Positions 11,971-24,246 of a DNA stretch of 24,404 nt are shown here, piece by piece. Numbering within the stretch: position 1 is the stretch's first letter; each line of letters starts with the position of its first letter. The DNA comes from a virus. The stretch is taken from UHGV virus genome UHGV-0166778. One strand, written 5' to 3'. The translations under genes and the position numbers were made by a program. The notes under the pieces are model-generated. The model made no database searches. It was not told the DNA's origin and saw only the letters and a list, made by a program, of their open reading frames with translations.

Positions 11971-11998
11971 GGAGTCAGATATTCTGACTCCTTATTTC
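11971..11998. terminator. Bidirectional rho-independent terminator between convergent Q and the TM-TIR gene
   Basis: Stem ggagtcag / ctgactcc with a 5-nt loop, flanked by an A-run on one side and a T-rich tract on the other. Confidence 0.5.
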
Positions 11999-12599
11999 AA
12001 CCAAGAATGGACTTCAATGACAAATTGAGCTTATCAATTAATTTTTCATCCTCATAGTTTACAGACTTGATGTTTTTGAGCATCGCAGGCAATTCAGCAT
12101 CACCAATTATCACAGGAATTATAGGAACATAGTTTTCATCTTTTACCGTAGCTTTACGGAGAAAGCCCTCTACCTCCTTTCTTATATATGACTCCATATC
12201 TTCATTAGACAGAAGCAATATAGCCGCAGCGCTATTGTCTATAGCCTGATTAATTTGCTTTTCAATAATCTGCCCGGGCAATATGTTATTTTCATCAAAC
12301 CATACATCAAAACCTAACTCATTAAGCTTACAAGTTATTTGACGGGCCTTATCTTTTTCTTGTACGGGATACATTAGAAATATTTGCTTTCCTTTTTTAA
12401 CGGCCTTTAGTCTTCTTTCCCTTAATTTCATTAACACAATCAAACTCAGGCCAGAATAGGCAAAAGATAATCCAATAACGGAGATGATAATCTCATCATT
12501 AACTCCTTGAAATAAATATGGGAGCCGTGGAATAAGAGCCATAAGAAACCCAACAACAGCCAATGCAATTGAAATAATATAAAGAGTATTTTTTTTCAT
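11997..12599 (-). CDS. Membrane-anchored TIR-like domain protein (two N-terminal TM helices plus C-terminal TIR-like fold)
   Basis: 200 aa. N-terminal hydrophobic helices (LYIISIALAVVGFLMALIP; IIISVIGLSFAYSGLSLIVLM), then IFLMYPVQEKDKARQITCKLNELGFDVWFDENNILPGQ...AIDNSAAAILLLSNEDMESYIRKEVEGF, which follows the TIR beta-A / alpha-A / beta-C pattern. AT-rich, unlike the flanking phage core. Confidence 0.6.
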   Translation of the reverse strand: MKKNTLYIISIALAVVGFLMALIPRLPYLFQGVNDEIIISVIGLSFAYSGLSLIVLMKLRERRLKAVKKGKQIFLMYPVQEKDKARQITCKLNELGFDVWFDENNILPGQIIEKQINQAIDNSAAAILLLSNEDMESYIRKEVEGFLRKATVKDENYVPIIPVIIGDAELPAMLKNIKSVNYEDEKLIDKLNLSLKSILG

Positions 12600-13016
12600 T
12601 TACACACCCTTAATCCACAAAACAAAGGAAGCAAAAAATAATATGCCGACTAAATTACACCCAATACATAAAACCCAAATTTGACCTTTTGGATTTCCTG
12701 TTCGCCCTTCCCAATCTTGATGAAAAGACATGATCCCCAGTAATACAAAAAGAGAGAAGGCAAGAAAGCTAGTAGTTCCAATGTACTGATTAACCACTTG
12801 GTTAACCGTGGTTACTGTTTGAACAGTTTTAGTCAAATCATATAAATTCAACAATGATGCACCAATTGTCGATAATATCAACTCATTCCCAAAGTAAAAA
12901 TCACTCTTTTGCCAACCAGAGGATCTGGCAAGTTTTTTTACAAAAGCCCCACATAGAATCATCAACAATGGAAAAATTAAAGCAACAACGTATTTATTAC
13001 CAATGACATCAATCAT
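12600..13016 (-). CDS. Small polytopic membrane protein, function unknown; first gene of an operon with the TM-TIR gene
   Basis: 138 aa with about four hydrophobic helices; its stop codon directly abuts the ATG of the TM-TIR gene; AT-rich. Confidence 0.55.
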   Translation of the reverse strand: MIDVIGNKYVVALIFPLLMILCGAFVKKLARSSGWQKSDFYFGNELILSTIGASLLNLYDLTKTVQTVTTVNQVVNQYIGTTSFLAFSLFVLLGIMSFHQDWEGRTGNPKGQIWVLCIGCNLVGILFFASFVLWIKGV

Positions 13017-13206
13017 TAATCATCATTCCTTCAATAAATCGCATCATGCCTTTTTGTTTTTAGCTTCATCCACAACCAGTCACCATCGACATCAATATAT
13101 CACATACTAAATATATAATAATTTTATCGAACTATACAAAGCAACCAAGAGTAAAAATAACATACTCTGCCTTACATTCGAAAGGACATTATCATCCCAA
13201 CGCGCG

Positions 13207-13225
13207 CTCGTATCCCCGCCACGCC
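13207..13225 (-). other. Candidate cos (cohesive end) core
   Basis: Reverse complement reads GGCGTGGCGGGGATACGAG; the first 13 nt match the P2/186 cos overhang as I recall it (GGCG[A/T]GGCGGGGAAAGCA). An isolated GC-rich block in an AT-rich intergenic region, at the map position expected for cos. Confidence 0.3.
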
Positions 13226-13270
13226 TGCCCGCTTTATGTAGTAGTTTTCATGCAGGTGCATGATCTACGC

Positions 13271-13294
13271 AAAAGCCCGCCAGTTCTGGCGGGC
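13271..13294 (-). terminator. Rho-independent terminator downstream of the 13343..14185 gene
   Basis: Stem gcccgcc / ggcgggc with a short loop; on the minus strand it is followed by TTTT. Confidence 0.4.
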
Positions 13295-13342
13295 CTTAGC
13301 AAAAACGATCCTCAAACGATCATGCGATCTCATGCAGCATAG

Positions 13343-14185
13343 TCATGCACGATCATTTGACTCAGCATCTGCTGCACGCTTGCTGCGCGAAGATGCACTT
13401 TTACTACCAATCTTTCGACAGTTCTTTCTATCCCTGGCTTCATTTTCTTTAAATTTGTTATATGTCTCAGTATCAAAAAACGAAATTGTTTCAACCTCAT
13501 CTTTTGGTATGAGCACACGGAAATCTTCGATATTAAGCCGAGACATTCCACTTATCACACCACTATCAAGATAATGTTGGTGATAGTTAGTCGTGATACT
13601 AATCGTTAGATCATCTTTATCCCGATATCCGCTTAACATCGGGAGAAGTTCAAGGTGTTCTGAAAGCCCGTTTTCTAACGCCGGACAAGTAACAAGACCA
13701 ACATAGATTTTGCGAGACGACAGAGTTGCTATGATCGGAAACTGTCTTGCGGACGCTTCCATGAGTAATGATTCGAAAGCGTTATTACCCACAGCTTTAG
13801 CTAAGGCATCCCAGCGACGATCTCCACGTGATGTGCGTAACTTATTTCCAAAACCTGAAATCGCAGCGAGGACAATTGAAATCATAACCCATGCTATCTG
13901 TTTGATTTCATTTATTCTTTGAAGTTTGTCTTTCGATGAAGACAACATGCCGTTAAAACTGTCAGGTGTTAGATTCAAGGCATTAGCCAGCCAACGAAAC
14001 CCTCCGCTGACGTTCAAAATAAAGGTGAAAAAACCGCCAAGGAGAAAAAAAACGATACCCCAGGCAGCCACAAAAAAATAAGCGTCCCAGCCGTTGGAAC
14101 GCTTATATCGGTATCTTGTTGAAAGTGATAGGTTTACATAAATAAAACCACTAACCAAAATCACTGCTAAAAGTAATGTTGCCAT
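13343..14185 (-). CDS. Membrane-anchored protein of unknown function (N-terminal TM helices plus about 170-aa soluble domain)
   Basis: 280 aa with hydrophobic segments (LLLAVILVSGFIYV; YFFVAAWGIVFFLLGGFFTFIL; IAWVMISIVLAAISGF) and a charged Ser/Arg/Lys-rich C-terminus; AT-rich; start overlaps the stop of the upstream small gene (TAATG). Confidence 0.5.
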   Translation of the reverse strand: MATLLLAVILVSGFIYVNLSLSTRYRYKRSNGWDAYFFVAAWGIVFFLLGGFFTFILNVSGGFRWLANALNLTPDSFNGMLSSSKDKLQRINEIKQIAWVMISIVLAAISGFGNKLRTSRGDRRWDALAKAVGNNAFESLLMEASARQFPIIATLSSRKIYVGLVTCPALENGLSEHLELLPMLSGYRDKDDLTISITTNYHQHYLDSGVISGMSRLNIEDFRVLIPKDEVETISFFDTETYNKFKENEARDRKNCRKIGSKSASSRSKRAADAESNDRA

Positions 14186-14400
14186 TATCTGGTTCTATTA
14201 GTTTTCTCTTTTACAGTGCTCGTTTTGATGCCTTCAAGCTTATCCATCTGTGCCTTGATGGCATCCATTGCTCTTTTGTTAGACAAGTCTACGGACACAA
14301 AACCATCTTTACTAAGATTGAGTTTGTCCTGGTTCTCTTTAAGAACCCTTGCCAGACGTTCAACTGGGTTACCCAGGCTAAATGCGGCGATGCTTGACAT
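14185..14400 (-). CDS. Small hydrophilic protein of unknown function, translationally coupled to the downstream membrane protein
   Basis: 71-aa ORF MSSIAAFSLGNPVERLARVLKENQDKLNLSKDGF...; AT-rich cargo region. Confidence 0.45.
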   Translation of the reverse strand: MSSIAAFSLGNPVERLARVLKENQDKLNLSKDGFVSVDLSNKRAMDAIKAQMDKLEGIKTSTVKEKTNRTR

Positions 14401-14670
14401 AACTCCCCCTTTTCACATGGCGCGGAAGTCTACACTCCGACGCCTACAACCTCAACAGATTATCTTTAAAATTTAGACAACAATATCATCTGTTGATTTC
14501 GTTACTTAAACTTAAGTTCAATGCGCTCGATCATGCAAGCGGTTTCTTAAGAACTGTTAATTTCCTGGCATATATAGTGGTTAAGGTAACAAATTGACAC
14601 TAACGCCTCGCATAGCTCGTTGTTCAACCTTGCTGACGCCAGAAGCAAGTTCAGACGCCAGCAACGTTTC

Positions 14671-14904
14671 TTAATGCAGCCAGCTGTCGTCTTCCCACAC
14701 CTTCTGCATAATTTTCATTACTTGTTTCCTTTCTTCGTCCAGTTGCAGTCCGGTCAGTTCCACACCGTTAGAGCTACCTTTACGGATACGAATTACCGTT
14801 TTGGGATACAGGGGGCGCAGATTGCGGTAAAGCTCGGATTCAAAGGCGTCCAGGGTAGACTGGCTAATCTTCTGCTCTTTATCGATCATTATTTCAATGC
14901 GCAT
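14671..14904 (-). CDS. dinI: DinI-family protein
   Basis: Internal start MRIEIMIDKEQKISQSTLDAFESELYRNLRPLYPKTVIRIRKGSSNGVELTGL...VWEDDSWLH fits the DinI length and pattern (MRIE... N-terminus, acidic W-containing C-terminus); GAGGTG ribosome-binding site upstream. Confidence 0.75.
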   Translation of the reverse strand: MRIEIMIDKEQKISQSTLDAFESELYRNLRPLYPKTVIRIRKGSSNGVELTGLQLDEERKQVMKIMQKVWEDDSWLH

Positions 14905-14914
14905 AAAAGTCACC

Positions 14915-15103
14915 TCAACTGATGACATCCATTGAGCGGTTGTATTCGTGGGTTCTGATTTTTGCCATAAGTTCATCTGTCAGTTCAGAAACCCACTGCA
15001 AAGCCAGCCCCTTCTCTTCATCACTACACTCACTAGCCGCTACAAGCTTAAGAAAAAAATCAATGCGCTGGAGCTTCAAAGACTCCAAAAAATAGTCCTG
15101 CAT
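14915..15103 (-). CDS. Putative Tum-like antirepressor (small protein transcribed from the LexA-controlled promoter)
   Basis: 62-aa ORF with a GGAGGA ribosome-binding site, directly downstream of a LexA-box promoter and upstream of dinI; the position matches tum of phage 186. Confidence 0.4.
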   Translation of the reverse strand: MQDYFLESLKLQRIDFFLKLVAASECSDEEKGLALQWVSELTDELMAKIRTHEYNRSMDVIS

Positions 15104-15143
15104 CTTTCCTCCTATAACACCAAAGAAATACTGTATAAATAAC

Positions 15144-15186
15144 CACTGTTTACATTTACAGTATATAATAATCTTACTGATGTAAA
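15144..15186 (-). promoter_or_regulatory. SOS-regulated promoter: LexA box (CTGT-N8-ACAG) overlapping the -10 element
   Basis: Plus strand 15146..15161 is ctgtttacatttacag. On the minus strand, -35 TTTACA (15181..15186), a 17-bp spacer and -10 TACTGT (15158..15163) are overlapped by the LexA box. Confidence 0.6.
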
Positions 15187-15255
15187 ACGTTTTTTTACGT
15201 TCATCGGCCTGATATGCCTGGTATTATTAAGAGCACGAATTGTTAACCCGCGTAA

Positions 15256-17670
15256 TTAATACAGGTTTCGCCACTTATCATCTTCCTGCAAACGCTGGTT
15301 CCGATAGAAGATACGCAGGCCTGCTCCTGACGGAATACTGCCGCCGCGAAGCAGTAAATCGACCTCTTTCTCGCTGCCATCAAATCCCCTGGACTTCAGT
15401 TCATACACGAGCTGCTGTCGCTGATGATCTGTAATTCGCTGTTTGTAGTCTTTACGCCGTTTCGGTTTCACCAGGCGTAACCTTGCTGCCAGTTCCCGGC
15501 GCTCTTTTTTGCTCATACTGTGCAGGTAATCGTGCAACTCCTTGTCATCCATGCGGGTGATATCCGTTCTGGTATCTCCATCAGCTGATTTGTCTTTCCC
15601 TTGTTGGTACAAATTTTCAGCAAGGGGACAGTTATTGCCACGAGTCCAAGGGGCGCAAGCGCCCTGGTCGGCTGCCGCCTCCTGAACGTCAACGGCCTTA
15701 CGAACCATTTTCCACTTCACTGCATGAGTGCAGATCTTGCCCTCTGCAATGGGTGACCAGATGCCATAAATACGAATACCGTGATCGCCATAGGCGGTCG
15801 GCTCTTCGTTGATTTCATAAGCGGTTCTGATGAGGTGATATTTGCGGGGAACCAGTACGCCGCCCTGCTTCATGATGTAGGAGGCAAAACAACCAGCATC
15901 AGCAGCAGCCAGGATGGCATCAAGGCGCGGGTTATCCAGTACCGGCGCACCTGCTTTTTTGTCACCCTGTTGCCTTGCCGCCTGACCAGCCAGCAATCGC
16001 AGTTCACGGTAAGCCTGACGCCCCGGAATGCCAAAGAAGCGGAATTGCTGAACACGATGCAGAGACGCCCAGGCATTAACGTATTCAGCGTTATCACGCA
16101 GGGATTTACCCGTTTCCTTACTGATCTCGCCAGCCAGACCACGCCCGTCAATATTCTTACTGATATATTTCGCAATGTAGCTTGTCGGCGTTCCTTTGCG
16201 CGGGTTTATCAGCTCAGACTTAAAGCGTGGCCCCGTGTTATTGCCCAGCTCCTCGCGGTCTTCACGGATGGCAAACTTACGCAACAATGCAGTAATGGCG
16301 CGGCGGTCTTTTTTGCGCATGAAACACAACAGGTGCCAGTGAACTGTGCCGTCATGATGCGGCTCAGCCACCCGCACGCCATACCAGCGCAACCCGGCTT
16401 TGTGCATAGCCTTACGAAATGCAGCAAACATGCCGACCAGATAATCGCTGCTTTGTCTTACTGTCGCGTTGGTCCAGGTCGGGTTTGGCCTGCCGTTATT
16501 TAGCGTGGAATGGAAACGTGACGGACAGGTGATGGTGTAGAAAACGGCGCAGTCACCACGCATTTCCGCGATAAGCTCCAGGCCTTTAACACAGGCCATC
16601 ATCTCGTTGCGGCGATGCGCCGGGTTGCTGCTGCTGGCGTTTACCACATCCTCCATGTTCAGCGTGTCGCCGTCTTCGTTCACCAGTTCATGAGAACGGA
16701 AAAACTCCAGCGACTTACGGCGCTGCTCACGTTTATGCATCACGGCTTCATAGCTGACATAGGGAGATGCTTTTTTGCTGACCAGGCAGACAGCACGCAA
16801 CTGCTCTTCCCGCCATTCGCAACGCATCTTCCATAATTTCCGATACCACCAGTCGGCGCACAGCATACGCGCCAGCGAACCCGGAATGAGTTCATAAGGC
16901 ACAGGTTTGCGGCGGTTTCTTTTCCGGCGGAGTTGCTCAAACGCTGGCGGTATGACATCCAGTCGCAGGGTTTCTGCAGCCACCTTTTCCCATGTCTTGC
17001 GGATTTCTTCTGGCTTAACATCATCGGAGGCGTACAAATCACCACAAGCGGCATCAAGACACATGCTCATATGCGCAGCGACAAGGGTAGACAGGCGTTT
17101 CACCTGATCCTGACTCATTTCAGGCAGGATCATCAGACCGTCCAGCCCTTCATGGCTTGCCATAAAACGAAAAGATGCAGATAGCTGGCTGTCGCGTACA
17201 TGCTCCAGTCGTTCCAGACATGGCTTAATCGTCTCACGCAAATAGCGGGAATAAGCCTTTGGCCTGCCCAGGCTGCTGAAATATTCAATACGTTGCATCA
17301 GCGGCTTGCTGATATGGGAAGGCTGGGCGTTGACGTCAGTCAGAATGACCATGTCTGGATTAAAACGCTGCTGCTCATGCGCCATCTTTGCCCGGCTAAT
17401 GAGCTTATCCTGCTCCATTTCGCGTTGGACAGGATCACGGGATTCATTAAAGAAATAACGCTCCCAGACCTGATCACTCAGTGCCTCGCGGCGCAGTTGT
17501 TCCTGCTCGTTATCAGTAGCGTACAGAGTGATCAGGTTTGAAAGCGCAGAAACCGGCGCAACTTCCGCCGGGTCCAGATAAGGGTTAATGGCCTTTTTCG
17601 GGCTGTTCCATGAGAACGATGCGGCAGCTTCGTTAAAGCTGCAGCAGTTGTTCATATCGGCATGACTCAT
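15256..17670 (-). CDS. A: Replication initiation endonuclease (P2/186 gpA-like)
   Basis: 804-aa ORF in the conserved early-operon position; size and position match gpA. Confidence 0.85.
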
Positions 17671-20109: not shown

Positions 20110-20619
20110 TCACAGCAAACCGAATGAAGCACCGAGGCCAGTCACGGTATCAACCGCACTCGCCATCGCAGGATTAGCCTGTAAACGGGCCTGCAATGAA
20201 ACAGCAGCCAGCGCCATCAGTCGTGTAACAGAGTTAATGCTGCTGATCGCATCACGACGGCCTGCACTGGTTTTTACATCGCCAGAAACCGCACCTGCCG
20301 CGACACGCCCGATCTCTGCGGTTGCACTCATGACGTAATGTGGCAGTTTCTCTTTTGCCACCTCATTAATCGGTACACATGGCAGGCAGTGAATCTGAGC
20401 CAGAAAACCATCTACCAGCGTTGAATCTTCAGTCAGATCGGTAAGCAACCAGATTTCTGGTGCAGTTAATAAATGAGGTTGAGCTGGGTTCAGCTTGTTC
20501 CGCAGAATCTGCACATTCATGCCTGCACGTTCTGCCAGTTGCACCAGGTTGTGGCGCAGTGCAAAAGCCCTACAGGCTTCATCGAAATGCGGATGTTTGG
20601 AAATCTTGTAATCAAACAT
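20110..20619 (-). CDS. cII: CII-like lysogeny establishment regulator (phage 186 CII family)
   Basis: 169-aa [76 protein letters not shown]..., following an Apl-like gene as in 186. Confidence 0.8.
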
Positions 20620-21015: not shown

Positions 21016-21648
21016 ATGTTAAACATCAGAATGGGTTCCGATACGGGAGGTAAGGCAGCTATTGGAAGGCTGCTTGAGGCTTATGGATTCACAACTAAGC
21101 AGGCATTAAGCGAGCACCTGAATGTCTCAAAAAGCACTATGGCAAACAGAGTGTTACGTGACAGCTTTCCTGCTGACTGGATAATTCAGTGCGCACTAGA
21201 AACCGGTGTTTCGTTGCTTTGGTTAGCTACAGGACAGGGAAGCATGAAAGGAGGAGCTGAGCCTGAGAAAAGTTCTCATAATGAGAACAAACAAGCAATT
21301 AAACCGTTATCCAAACTCATAACTCCAGCTATTCCTAAAGGAACCCTGGAGAATGGACAACTCAGTATTGATGAAGAGATTTTCCTAGACCACAGCATAT
21401 TACCTGCAGATTATGAAGAATTGATGTTCTTAGAAACCCCTACTAATTGTTATCTCATCGATAAATCAATTAAACAGGTCAGCAATGGATTCTGGCTTAT
21501 CAATATTGATGGAATGATTATTGTTGCAAAAATCATGCGGATTCCCGGCAATAAGATTGTAGTAAATCAAGATGAAGCGTCTTTCGAGTGCTCTACTGAT
21601 GATGTGGAAGTTATTGGGCGTGCAGTCAAAGTAATAAAGAGTATCTAA
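21016..21648 (+). CDS. cI: CI immunity repressor (phage 186 CI family)
   Basis: 210-aa ORF with an N-terminal helix-turn-helix region (LLEAYGFTTKQALSEHLNVSKSTMANRV...CALETGVSLLWLATGQG) resembling 186 CI; followed directly by int. Confidence 0.8.
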   Translation: MLNIRMGSDTGGKAAIGRLLEAYGFTTKQALSEHLNVSKSTMANRVLRDSFPADWIIQCALETGVSLLWLATGQGSMKGGAEPEKSSHNENKQAIKPLSKLITPAIPKGTLENGQLSIDEEIFLDHSILPADYEELMFLETPTNCYLIDKSIKQVSNGFWLINIDGMIIVAKIMRIPGNKIVVNQDEASFECSTDDVEVIGRAVKVIKSI

Positions 21649-22690: not shown

Positions 22691-23476
22691 ATGCTGTCTG
22701 AAATAGAAATCAATGATGAAATTCAGCGAGGCAACATTTTTGATCCATTAACGGTATTAAATGGAACATTTAAAGTTCAATCTGCAAGCATTGATCTCTC
22801 TGTAAAAACAATACATATACCAGACTGTCAAGACAATAAAAAAACACGTAACAACCATATCCTGATGCCAGGGGAAACTGTAATATTAGAGTTAAATGAA
22901 AAATTCCAACTTGCAAAAAATTTAGCTGGTGTAATATTCCCAAGAAACACACTATCAAAAAATGGAATTATCATGACGAATCCAGGGCATATTGACCCTG
23001 GATATAATGGCATAATTTCAATATATCTTGTAAATATGTCAAAAGAACCATTCTCATTGACACAAAATTCTGCAGTAGCCCGAATGTTATTATTTAAAAC
23101 AATAATACCGACTAAAGGTTACCAAGGAAAAATCGTAAATAAATTGGATGATGATCAACTTTCTAGAATGGGAAAGGATTTTGCAGGACTTGATAAACGA
23201 CTTCCGAAAGAAATCAATAAAATCATTGCGAAAAAAACTGGCTTTATAATTGCGATAGCAGCCTTAATGCTAACGTTGATAACCCTAGCAATTCCTTTCT
23301 TATTTCAAATAGTATCCAGTAATGTCAGTAGTACAAAAGATCTTGAATTAACAATAAAAGTTCAACAAAATGAAATAAATAGCCTAAAAAGCACCGTTGA
23401 ATTACTAAAAAATGCTAAATCAAACGAACCAAAGGTTGATGCTAAAGTAAGCACCCCAAAAGCTATACGGGAGTAA
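22691..23476 (+). CDS. dCTP deaminase (Dcd)/dUTPase-fold protein with a C-terminal TM helix and coiled-coil tail
   Basis: 261 aa. The N-terminal ~185 aa show Dcd-family landmarks (LNGTFKVQSASIDLSV; PGETVILELNEKFQL; GIIMTNPGHIDPGYNGIISIYLVN); followed by a TM segment (FIIAIAALMLTLITLAIPFLF) and a Lys/Glu-rich coiled coil. AT-rich; ThyX start codon 2 nt after its stop. Confidence 0.7.
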   Translation: MLSEIEINDEIQRGNIFDPLTVLNGTFKVQSASIDLSVKTIHIPDCQDNKKTRNNHILMPGETVILELNEKFQLAKNLAGVIFPRNTLSKNGIIMTNPGHIDPGYNGIISIYLVNMSKEPFSLTQNSAVARMLLFKTIIPTKGYQGKIVNKLDDDQLSRMGKDFAGLDKRLPKEINKIIAKKTGFIIAIAALMLTLITLAIPFLFQIVSSNVSSTKDLELTIKVQQNEINSLKSTVELLKNAKSNEPKVDAKVSTPKAIRE

Positions 23477-23478
23477 AA

Positions 23479-24246
23479 ATGATAAAAATCTCTGATTTAT
23501 CAGTAAAATGCATATCACACCCTTCATTTGAAAGTAATGTTTTTGATGATTTTTTAAACACATCATCATTGCAATGGGTTCGCAAAGGGCAGGCGACCGA
23601 AGCTGAGCTTCTGGTAGAGGCCGCTGGCAGGCTATGTTATATGTCTTTTGGAGAGGATAAGCAGTCTCCACGGACTACAAGTCAATATATCAACAATTTA
23701 ATTATTCAAGGGCATGAAAGTGTCTTAGAACATTTGAACTGGACCTTTTTAATTACTGGGGTATCTCGTGCATTTACACACCAGCTAGTTCGGCATAGAG
23801 CTGGTTTTTCATATAGCCAGTTATCCCAACAGTATCATGATGAATCCGATGCTGAATTCGTAGCCCCTATAGAAGTAAAAAATGACCCAGAATTGTTTAA
23901 GTCATGGTGCCAACATATTGAAAGTAGTCTGGATTTTTATAAGCAATCCTTGAAAAAAATCCGTGAAAACCAATCGTATGAGAACAAAAAAGAAAAAATG
24001 CGGGCCCTAAGAAGCGCTTCTCGCTCTATATTGCCTAATGCAACCGAGACAAAAATAATCGTCACAGCAAATGCTCGCGCAATTCGACACTTCTTCGAAA
24101 TGAGAGGAGCAATACAGGGTGACTATGAAATGAGAACAGTTTCAGAAAAACTTTACGATATTGTAACTCAAGATGCCCCTGCCTTGTTCCAAGATTTCGA
24201 AAAAGTCAATGGAGGAACGGCGCACGTTAAGATAATAAAACAATAA
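23479..24246 (+). CDS. thyX: Flavin-dependent thymidylate synthase (ThyX family)
   Basis: 255 aa with the ThyX signature region GHESVLEHLNWTFLITGVSRAFTHQLVRHRAGFSYSQLSQQY (RHR-x7-8-S motif) and C-terminal ETKIIVTANARAIRHFFEMR; strong GGGAG ribosome-binding site. Confidence 0.85.
   Translation: MIKISDLSVKCISHPSFESNVFDDFLNTSSLQWVRKGQATEAELLVEAAGRLCYMSFGEDKQSPRTTSQYINNLIIQGHESVLEHLNWTFLITGVSRAFTHQLVRHRAGFSYSQLSQQYHDESDAEFVAPIEVKNDPELFKSWCQHIESSLDFYKQSLKKIRENQSYENKKEKMRALRSASRSILPNATETKIIVTANARAIRHFFEMRGAIQGDYEMRTVSEKLYDIVTQDAPALFQDFEKVNGGTAHVKIIKQ

Follow-up and report, generated by a model that had tools for sequence, protein, structure and literature searches.

Organization of the Locus

The window, meaning the whole 24,404-nt (24.4-kb) stretch of virus genome UHGV-0166778 that was analysed, carries on its minus strand a small operon that lies directly downstream of the gene for gpA and on the same strand (Table 1). 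A promoter with LexA sites is followed by a 62-aa tumA-like gene (ORF62) and then, as a separate reading frame, by a 77-aa DinI-family gene. Beyond these come a structured 3' element, a cargo cassette encoding a 71-aa product and a 280-aa membrane protein, and a terminator-like hairpin just before cos. The surroundings are those of a 186-like Peduoviridae genome: CII, CI, the integrase, and, where apl would be, an 80-aa ORF stand in the 186 order, and the same layout after gene A is found in 186, PSP3, and Fels-2. An earlier note on this DNA had described the 62-aa ORF and the DinI-family gene, each with its own ribosome-binding site, and both AGGAGG and GAGGTG are present. It had also placed the operon at the map position of tum in phage 186; the 186 record agrees, showing p95, a LexA site over its -10, and tum immediately behind gene A, an order and strand that the window shares. 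The analysis covered sequence architecture, homologies, and conservation.

Table 1. Features of the SOS operon and of associated elements in the window.
Feature	Position	Strand	Basis
Gene for gpA	15256-17670	-	Pfam Phage_GPA, 4.6e-127
-35 hexamer TTTACA	15181..15186	-	Read from sequence; p95 analogue
Alternative -10 TATACT, 15-nt spacer, overlapping the LexA box	15165..15160	-	Sequence
-10 hexamer TACTGT, 17-nt spacer from the -35	15158..15163	-	Hexamer shared with the -10 annotated for 186 p95
LexA (SOS) box 1, TACTGTAAATGTAAACAGTG, overlapping the -10	15144..15163	-	Perfect CTGT-N8-ACAG
LexA (SOS) box 2, CAGTGGTTATTTATACAGTA, left half degenerate (GTGG)	15129..15148	-	Sequence, conservation, colicin match
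Shine-Dalgarno AGGAGG of tumA-like gene	15108..15113	-	Sequence; invariant in 9 relatives
tumA-like gene (ORF62), 62 aa, putative antirepressor	14915..15103	-	Homology to N-terminal half of 186 Tum
Shine-Dalgarno GAGGTG of DinI-like gene, overlapping the tumA stop codon	14911..14916	-	Sequence; conserved junction
tumB / DinI-family gene, 77 aa, ATG at 14904	14671..14904	-	Pfam DinI
Conserved structured 3' UTR element: 18-bp hairpin, then invariant GGTTGAACAAC and GCGAGGCGTTAG	14596..14670	-	Covariation
Cargo cassette: 71-aa ORF and 280-aa membrane protein	14595..13352
Terminator-like hairpin GGCCCGCCAG-AA-CTGGCGGGC, then TTTT, just before cos	13271..13295	-	Read from sequence
186-type CI immunity repressor, inferred target of the tumA product	21016..21648	+	Pfam Phage_CI_repr and Phage_CI_C

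The 62-aa Gene and Its Putative Target

ORF62 is nearly identical to STM2728 of Fels-2 (61/62 residues, 98.4%). It matches three PHROG families, phrog_698 (3.6e-38), phrog_8554, and phrog_1993, and the N-terminal 70 aa of Tum match the same three. When the ORF62 family profile was aligned by hhalign with the profile of the Tum N-domain family, the two were collinear (2-46 vs 2-46) at 96% probability (E=4e-9); against the single PSP3 TumA sequence, the ORF62 profile gave a weak match (8.6% probability). BLASTP aligned ORF62 with neither 186 Tum nor PSP3 TumA and likewise failed to align PSP3 TumA with 186 Tum, so the method is too weak for 60-aa proteins of this kind. The similarity of the 62-aa product to Tum-like antirepressors, on which the earlier note had staked its reading, is thus seen by profile and not by BLASTP. 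Because of the hhalign and reciprocal PHROG matches, ORF62 is, by homology, a TumA-type counterpart of the N-terminal half of Tum; its connection to proteins with experimental support is remote and profile-based, given the lack of pairwise BLASTP similarity and the weak PSP3 hhalign result. ORF62 found no match in Pfam, NCBIfam, or PADLOC, and its family profile found none among PDB sequences. An AlphaFold2 model is a helical hairpin (pLDDT 88), for which a Foldseek search of the PDB returned generic helical hairpins only, none at E<=0.001. Nearly all database records call the gene a 'hypothetical protein' or, wrongly, a 'levan regulatory protein'; the practical gain lies in annotation, as the gene can now carry the label of a candidate TumA-type antirepressor.

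The window encodes a 186-type CI, which matches 186 CI along its whole length at 30% identity (E=7e-34) and in which Pfam detects no Peptidase_S24 domain. As this CI has no autocleavage domain, induction by the SOS response needs an antirepressor. Among phages that share the TumA type of the window, the N-terminal domain of CI is 63-77% identical and the C-terminal domain 26-54%. From this co-variation, seen in 8 phages whose shared ancestry confounds it, we infer that TumA may contact the N-terminal DNA-binding domain of CI.

It could be argued that the operon is LexA-controlled and that the 62-aa protein is nevertheless not an antirepressor of its own CI, having some other role in the SOS response or in superinfection, with prophage induction dependent on something elsewhere or absent. 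The remote similarity to Tum and TumA would fit such a role, as would the lack of a curated family or solved structure for the protein; moreover, an identical 62-aa protein is found beside CIs that are only 39-58% identical to that of the window (39-53% in 4LV2017, KP12, and Kp4845-2), which is unusual for a specific antagonist. However, the CI N-terminal domain keeps 63-77% identity in all phages with the same TumA, the homology to the Tum N-domain is collinear and supported by the reciprocal PHROG matches, and the genomic slot, the regulation, and the DinI partner are those of 186 tum and PSP3 tumA. A CI of this type requires an antirepressor for SOS induction, and there is no further LexA box in the 24.4 kb. 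Bunny et al. 2002 (reference 22 of PMC3121763) also tie, in their title, the lethal phenotype of a lexA null to the Fels-2 prophage. Taken together, this makes a role other than antirepression quite unlikely.

Promoter and Operator

The promoter has a LexA box over its -10, as in the 186-type SOS module: the 20-mer of box 1 (15163..15144) begins with TACTGT, and the position of this box relative to the -10 matches that of the annotated LexA site of 186. The LexA box overlapping a minus-strand -10, the TTTACA -35, and the 17-bp spacer described in the earlier note can all be read in the sequence. The note had given the operator as one canonical box at 15144..15163; the box there is perfect, but the operator is not single, since a second box lies at 15148..15129. 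The 16-nt cores of boxes 1 and 2 (15161..15146 and 15146..15131) share one base, and over its full 35 nt the operator corresponds to a double SOS box that precedes a colicin-like bacteriocin operon on pCKO3. The left half-site of box 2 is degenerate, which counts against this reading. The 40-nt version of the operator found in Fels-2 has matches in 1194 plasmid records, agreeing at 36/39 positions on pCKO3. Judged by these overlapping cores and the colicin match, the operator is a colicin-type pair of overlapping SOS boxes rather than one box. Colicin operators are bound by two LexA dimers, which prevents untimely lethal expression (PMC2994835); two dimers may likewise give the phage promoter a colicin-like tight and late induction.

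Conservation follows the regulatory elements closely. TATACTGTA, CAGTG..TACAG, and the Shine-Dalgarno sequence of the tumA-like gene are invariant in 9 diverged relatives, and the box 2 pattern CAGTG..T.T...TACAG is unchanged across the same number. TTTACA is kept in all 8 of those relatives (9 compared) whose fetched slice reaches the -35, and the spacer holds a constant 17 nt while varying in sequence.

A fortuitous match to the LexA box, over a promoter that is constitutive or controlled by a phage factor, is very improbable. CTGT-N8-ACAG has a chance expectation of ~0.35 per whole window, and 29% of shuffled windows hold at least one occurrence somewhere; in addition, a generic consensus-based promoter scanner made no call at the SOS promoter, because TACTGT agrees with TATAAT at 3/6 positions only. 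On the other hand, the sole occurrence across the 24.4-kb window is box 1, which falls exactly on the -10 and inside a 152-bp intergenic region, where the expectation is roughly 0.002. The box is invariant in relatives whose flanks have diverged, the arrangement is duplicated in 186 and PSP3, and boxes 1 and 2 together reproduce the colicin double operator at ~90% identity.

The DinI-family Gene and the Division of tum

The second product matches Pfam DinI (PF06183) over the full profile (positions 1-63/63; E=1.9e-22; 79.8 bits vs a cut-off of 24.2). It aligns to residues 71-145 of 186 Tum with 43% identity (E=4e-25), which agrees with the statement in the earlier note that Tum has a DinI-like region, and also to E. 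coli DinI itself (PDB 1GHH, E=8.8e-6). It is 77% identical to PSP3 TumB and differs from Fels-2 STM2726.1 at a single residue (76/77 identical). Against NF007893, the NCBIfam equivalog for chromosomal DinI, it scored 40.5 bits where the cut-off is 111. By this score the protein is not the product of host dinI but a TumB-type phage paralogue within the DinI family, encoded directly downstream of ORF62 as a separate gene.

The two products total 62 + 77 = 139 aa, as the earlier note had counted. It had offered two explanations for this, a natural split and a frameshift relative to a fused ancestor, of which the first stands and the second does not. The junction TGAGGTGACTTTTATG is common to Fels-2, 813R9, and Cartapus, and the same split with diverged junctions occurs in MLG42, SEN8, SopEPhi, and PSP3. 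The 62-aa family comprises 484 clusters across the Enterobacterales; at the 50% identity level it has 66 representatives; apart from a few, these are free-standing and 35-104 aa long, and in the few longer members the ORF62 match is at the C-terminal end. A DinI motif was found in 0/181 retrieved members of this family, and 112/120 homologues of the 186-type N-domain also stand alone. With no DinI fusion among the 181 members and a conserved junction, the split of tum is, on comparative grounds, natural and not a frameshift.

A fused 146-aa tum broken by a frameshift or nonsense mutation, whether through gene decay or through faulty sequencing, would fit two ORFs in different frames and 199 nt apart that total nearly the 146 aa of Tum, but it is effectively refuted by the conservation of the split among relatives, with a strong Shine-Dalgarno sequence before each gene and an annotated GTG start of its own for the DinI half of 186 tum also counting against it, and was rejected.

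The 3' Region

The element that follows the DinI-family gene is conserved as a structure. In 11 sequences, compensatory changes were seen at 10 of the 18 pairs of the hairpin, and 93% of cells were paired, compared with 31-45% when the partners were slid. A covariance model found one copy in the window (91.8 bits); neither the model nor a 3-mismatch search with the 30-nt core found a second. Rfam has no family for this hairpin, nor for anything else in the window. The element sits at the edge of a variable cargo region, a defence-cargo hotspot. In the window, the cargo cassette follows it, the 280-aa protein of which is unrelated to Orf97 of 186. The terminator-like block is conserved in 813R9 and MLG42, where it adjoins the hairpin element; a terminator scanner made no call at 13271..13295. 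If transcription reads through the cassette, this hairpin is possibly the 3' end of the SOS transcript.

Interpretation

The best reading of the locus is that it belongs to a 186-like (Peduoviridae) prophage of the Fels-2 type and is its SOS-induction module, in the split tumA-tumB form; we put the probability of this reading, antirepressor mechanism included, at about 85%. LexA binding to the operator and SOS derepression, the antirepressor activity of the ORF62 product, and the role of the DinI-family protein are all proposed by analogy with 186, PSP3, and Fels-2, and for LexA also with colicin operators. In the lysogen, LexA would occupy the double operator, overlapping a sigma-70 promoter at its -10 and start region, and keep the operon silent. 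Upon DNA damage, RecA would become active and LexA would cleave itself, and the promoter would then fire to yield a bicistronic mRNA. The 62-aa helical-hairpin protein would bind CI and keep it off its own operators, which would free the early lytic promoter and lead to prophage induction. The DinI-family protein corresponds to the C-terminal half of Tum, and also to the truncated Tum that 186 makes as a separate translation product; it would modulate RecA and the SOS response.

A further set of suggestions goes beyond this reading and is offered tentatively, as rather doubtful. The Fels-2-type TumA could have broad specificity as an antirepressor, through recognition of a CI N-terminal DNA-binding domain that stays conserved while the other CI domain diverges, and might thereby cross-induce co-resident P2-like prophages, perhaps heteroimmune ones. 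The double operator could set a late, all-or-none threshold. Transcripts may also pass the 3' hairpin into the cassette of 71-aa and 280-aa ORFs, which would place the cargo under SOS control, as with orf97 in 186.

The module explains how prophages of the Fels-2/186-like group can be induced by DNA damage, including that caused by antibiotics like the fluoroquinolones, despite a non-cleavable repressor. The group is widespread, occurring in Salmonella, Klebsiella, and E. coli.

Comparison with Known Systems

The module is real but ordinary. The split tum of Fels-2 and PSP3 (tumA/tumB) has already been published (PMC3121763), so there is no novelty in the module itself; the mechanism has been established in 186 and reported in Fels-2 and PSP3, and this instance therefore adds no new principle. 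A literature search under the names tumA and tumB returned unrelated papers only. The earlier note had missed both the published status of the split and the double nature of the operator. What goes beyond the published split is the double operator, the tracking of the CI N-terminal domain by TumA type, and the hairpin with covarying pairs that borders the defence hotspot, each of them a small lead.

The more distant parallels share parts of the design. The dinI-gfoA/gftA operons of Gifsy-1/2/3 are LexA-controlled, and their antirepressors are able to act in trans on other prophages (PMC3121763). Like the operon of the window, they pair a DinI homologue with a small antirepressor directed against a non-cleavable repressor; unlike it, they have dinI first and belong to other phage and repressor families; the comparison was of operon layout. 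The operators of colicin and cloacin operons are nearly the same in sequence (TATACTGTATATAAAACCAGTGGTTATATGTACAGTATTT on pCKO3 vs TATACTGTAAATGTAAACAGTGGTTATTTATACAGTATTT in the window), but they drive unrelated genes for bacteriocin, immunity, and lysis. Their boxes also lie just 3' of a separate -10 (TAATTT), whereas in the window box 1 itself contains the -10.

The experimentally defined prototype is p95-tum of 186, in which a LexA-repressed promoter follows gene A and has its TACTGT -10 inside the LexA box, and the Tum protein, made under LexA control, acts as an antirepressor by inhibiting CI (PMC7708051). The 186 promoter differs in having TTCACA in place of TTTACA at the -35, an 18-nt spacer, and a single LexA box, and outside that box its DNA cannot be aligned with the window. 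Both halves of 186 tum are fused into 146 aa, with the DinI half also translated from an internal GTG, and tum is followed by orf97 and the terminator t95a.

PSP3 is closer, having the same two-gene split in the same slot after gene A, a LexA box over a TACTGT -10, and the 3' hairpin element. Its record describes tumA as 'similar to 5' end 186 tum; UV induction of prophage' and names the second gene tumB. In contrast to the window, PSP3 has a single box, a gap of 3 nt rather than 10 nt between tumA and tumB, and a 60-aa TumA of a different sequence type from ORF62. The passage of PMC3121763 on this subject gives tum as being in two parts in Fels-2 and PSP3 and, citing a personal communication, assigns antirepressor activity to the upstream PSP3 gene.

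Fels-2 is the nearest relative. After the DinI gene it has a 243-aa ORF, where the window has the 3' hairpin and then the cassette of 71-aa and 280-aa ORFs, and the covariance model did not find the hairpin element in the Fels-2 stretch that was fetched. Its CI is only 57.5% identical to that of the window. The module itself, STM2728/STM2726.1, is essentially the same: the DNA is 96.3% identical over 15300..14673, and the promoter and the double operator are shared, with one base differing in the spacer of box 1.

Organization of the module

Downstream of gpA the 186-like (Peduoviridae) prophage of the window carries, as the earlier note had observed, a LexA-box promoter followed by a 62-aa ORF (ORF62, tumA-like) and a DinI-family gene; the observation is confirmed, and homology supports its interpretation as a split antirepressor operon. 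Inferred from homology in the same way, the whole mechanism is probable (roughly 85%): LexA would repress the promoter of the tumA-DinI operon, the SOS response would derepress it, the TumA product would block CI, and the DinI-like protein would modulate RecA.

Features of the SOS module and its surroundings
Feature	Position	Strand	Sequence, match or location
Integrase gene			listed after CI
CI repressor	21016..21648		Phage_CI_repr + Phage_CI_C
80-aa ORF			apl position
CII homologue	20110..20619
Dam-type methylase gene			precedes gpA
gpA replication protein gene	15256..17670	same as module	upstream of module; Pfam Phage_GPA 4.6e-127
-35	15186..15181	-	TTTACA; 17-nt spacer next
-10	15163..15158	-	TACTGT; first bases of box 1
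LexA box 1	15163..15144	-	20-mer TACTGTAAATGTAAACAGTG
LexA box 2	15148..15129	-	20-mer CAGTGGTTATTTATACAGTA, defined by conserved columns of relatives
Shine-Dalgarno, ORF62	four bases 5' of ATG	-	AGGAGG
ORF62, 62 aa	15103..14915	-	sequence
Shine-Dalgarno, DinI gene	overlaps ORF62 TGA stop codon	-	GAGGTG
DinI-family gene, 77 aa	14904 (ATG)..14671	-	sequence
75-nt element	14670..14596	-	directly 3' of DinI stop codon; 18-bp hairpin, then invariant GGTTGAACAAC and GCGAGGCGTTAG
Cargo cassette, 71-aa + 280-aa predicted membrane protein	14400..13343	-	PHROG: phrog_9843, phrog_3630
Terminator-like hairpin	13295..13271	-	inside conserved block
cos, 19-nt cohesive-end sequence	13225..13207	-	GGCGTGGCGGGGATACGAG; in conserved block; aligns to right end of 186 genome
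Second cassette, 138-aa (phrog_25392) + 200-aa TIR-domain protein	13016..11997	-	between cos and portal gene gpQ

Promoter and operator

Every part of the minus-strand promoter previously described, with its -35, 17-nt spacer and LexA box lying on the -10, can be read in 14671..15186. Since only about 0.35 copies of the CTGT-N8-ACAG core are expected by chance in the whole 24.4-kb window, which holds one, its occurrence in this 152-bp intergenic region is improbable by chance (about 0.002). The promoter was not reported by a generic promoter scanner, which called no promoter-like site in 14300..15400, because TACTGT agrees with TATAAT at three positions only; p95, the SOS promoter of phage 186, is annotated with this very hexamer as its -10. 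An alternative -10, TATACT with a 15-nt spacer, likewise lies under box 1.

Alignment of nine Fels-2-type relatives showed the stretch 3' of box 1 to be conserved equally with box 1 (invariant columns TATACTGTA ... CAGTG.T.T...TACAG), with a variable -35/-10 spacer and 5' UTR. The resulting box 2 has a degenerate left half, GTGG, and its 16-nt core shares one base with that of box 1. In its 40-nt Fels-2 form the operator matches 1194 plasmid records; the pCKO3 copy, TATACTGTATATAAAACCAGTGGTTATATGTACAGTATTT, precedes an operon of colicin-like bacteriocin, immunity and lysis genes.

Two separate genes

Both genes have their own ribosome-binding sites, as originally proposed. The second gene appears in a longer version (101 aa) in a mechanical ORF list; DinI homology begins at the ATG at 14904. 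The 77-aa protein matches Pfam DinI (1.9e-22) and PDB 1GHH (E=9e-6), and it aligns to residues 71-145 of Tum, the 146-aa antirepressor of 186 (43% identity, E=4e-25), bearing out the DinI-like region ascribed to Tum in the earlier note. It scores 40.5 bits against a cut-off of 111 bits for the chromosomal DinI equivalog and is therefore a phage paralogue within the DinI family. In a 6-bp hairpin, GTCATC...GGTGAC (14909-14926, minus strand), the Shine-Dalgarno of the DinI gene base-pairs with the last part of the tumA reading frame, which hints at translational coupling of the two genes; the hairpin is kept among the closest relatives only.

The likeness of the 62-aa product to Tum, on which the earlier note had made its reading depend, was upheld by profile comparisons. 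Pairwise BLASTP gave no match of ORF62 to 186 Tum or to PSP3 TumA, but PSP3 TumA and 186 Tum were also without a match to each other, so that BLASTP is uninformative for such short proteins. ORF62 matches phrog_698 (3.6e-38), phrog_8554 (2.4e-8) and phrog_1993 (2e-3), and Tum, over its first 70 residues, matches the same families (5.9e-6, 3.4e-12 and 1.5e-23, respectively), with protein and profile positions collinear in both. When 28 diverse ORF62 relatives were compared by hhalign with a 16-member alignment of Tum N-domain relatives and PSP3 TumA, residues 2-46 aligned on 2-46 with 96% probability (E=4e-9). Both families share a conserved Glu close to the N-terminal end, a hydrophobic helix, a turn bearing a Cys, and a helix of the form 'ALxxxxEL'. 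An AlphaFold2 model of ORF62 is a two-helix hairpin (H2-23 + H28-61, mean pLDDT 88). In public records (P0018; MK422454) ORF62-type proteins are 'hypothetical protein' nearly everywhere; the label 'levan regulatory (domain) protein', carried by a UniRef entry and one phage record, looks spurious.

A natural split and a frameshift relative to a fused ancestor had been left as alternatives. Judged by its relatives, the split is natural. The module DNA is 96.3% identical to Fels-2 across 15300..14673, with 61/62 residues of ORF62 identical to STM2728 and 76/77 of the DinI protein to STM2726.1. The junction TGAGGTGACTTTTATG is identical in Fels-2, 813R9 and Cartapus, and diverged yet split junctions occur in MLG42, ST437-OXA245phi4.1, ST13-OXA48phi12.1, SEN8, SopEPhi and PSP3. 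Clustered at the 90% level, the ORF62 family forms 484 clusters spread over Enterobacterales; at the 50% level it has 66 representatives. Nearly all of these representatives stand alone, with lengths of 35-104 aa, in the few longer ones the match to ORF62 is C-terminal, and a DinI motif was found in none of the 181 members retrieved. The frameshift reading is rejected on the same split in relatives and on this lack of a DinI motif. Of the 120 top-ranking relatives of the 186 Tum N-domain, 112 stand alone and 7 are fused, making the fused 186 form a minority within this sample. Even in fused Tum the DinI half can be translated from its own start, the 186 record giving an internal GTG start for a truncated, DinI-like Tum.

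The CI repressor as target

A domain search found no S24 peptidase domain in the window CI, and the protein shares 30% identity with 186 CI from end to end; it therefore belongs to a class not inactivated by RecA-stimulated self-cleavage. In phages with a 98-100% identical ORF62 (Fels-2, Kp4845-2, KP12, 4LV2017 and ST258-KPC3phi16.2), CI is only 39-58% identical overall to that of the window, with 63-77% in the N-terminal and 26-54% in the C-terminal domain; in 186, PSP3 and ESSI-2, with other TumA types, the corresponding domain values are 40-49% and 26-36%. This comparison of eight phages, confounded by shared ancestry and a lead rather than a result, suggests that TumA may contact the DNA-binding N-terminal domain of CI, which fits the 186 annotation of tum ('expression repressed by LexA; inhibits CI DNA binding'). 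Cross-induction between prophages with differing CI repressors is a possibility raised by these identities. One helix-turn-helix copy is present in the window CI (210 aa) and in 186 CI (192 aa). The N-terminal helix-turn-helix domain is duplicated in the CI of ST258-KPC3phi16.2 (L010, 292 aa), and PSP3 CI (L017; 861-nt CDS, about 286 aa) may have the same duplication.

The 3' element and adjoining cargo

The 75-nt element also follows DinI/tumB in 813R9 (sequence slice L001, 3731-3806), Cartapus, MLG42, ST437-OXA245phi4.1, ST13-OXA48phi12.1, SEN8 and SopEPhi; two copies flank orf37 in PSP3 (L004, 3555-3628 and 3959-4033), and in 186 it lies after orf97 (L002, 6343-6417). Across 11 sequences, compensatory changes occur at 10/18 hairpin pairs, and pairing holds in 93% of cells vs 31-45% with partners slid. 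The many G.U pairs on the tum-sense strand point to a hairpin acting as an RNA structure. No U-run follows it, and Rfam gives no family for the element. Similarity of the window to 813R9 and PSP3 ends exactly where the element ends, which, by these alignments, marks the boundary of a variable cargo region.

In 813R9, MLG42 and Kp4845-2 a conserved block adjoins the element at once; in the window it lies at 13351..13188 (minus strand), displaced by 1.25 kb. Because of this arrangement in relatives, the 71-aa + 280-aa cassette is read as an insertion between hairpin element and terminator. The cassette has no Pfam or PADLOC match and is unrelated to 186 Orf97; by analogy with orf97 in 186, the SOS promoter may transcribe it together with the tumA-DinI genes. 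Within the 280-aa ORF, in its 5' portion, lies a strong terminator-like hairpin (12-bp stem, then TTTTTTT; 14078-14106, minus strand), which might be an internal attenuator or have arisen by chance.

The 200-aa protein of the second cassette matches Pfam TIR_2 (3.6e-17) and TIR/ThsB-like PADLOC models, and with its 138-aa partner is a candidate anti-phage defence in the gpA-gpQ interval, a known P2 defence hotspot (PMC9122126, PMC13586616); those two papers mention neither DinI, tum nor the hairpin. Just past the integrase gene, two plus-strand ORFs (22691-24246) encode two proteins without a PADLOC match, one of 261 aa that is dCTP deaminase/dUTPase-like and one of 255 aa; they could be cargo of the P2-like prophage int-att hotspot, or host genes.

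Comparison with known systems

The module occupies the map position of 186 tum, as had been claimed: the 186 record places p95 ('SOS-dependent transcription of SOS operon') directly 3' of gene A, with the LexA site beginning at the first base of the p95 -10. The promoters are alike in architecture (TTCACA, 18 nt and TACTGTATGTTTATACAGTA in 186; TTTACA, 17 nt and TACTGTAAATGTAAACAGTG in the window). Both 186 and PSP3 have a single LexA box, in contrast to the double operator of the Fels-2-type module, which would imply tighter repression and later firing in the SOS response. In 186, p95 is LexA-regulated and CI is inhibited stoichiometrically by Tum (PMC7708051); Lemire, Figueroa-Bossi and Bossi 2011 (PMC3121763) liken Tum to an antirepressor joined to DinI. 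In the PSP3 record the split genes appear as tumA ('similar to 5' end 186 tum; UV induction of prophage') and tumB. The module is thus one already known: experiments have characterised it in 186, and it has been described in Fels-2 and PSP3.
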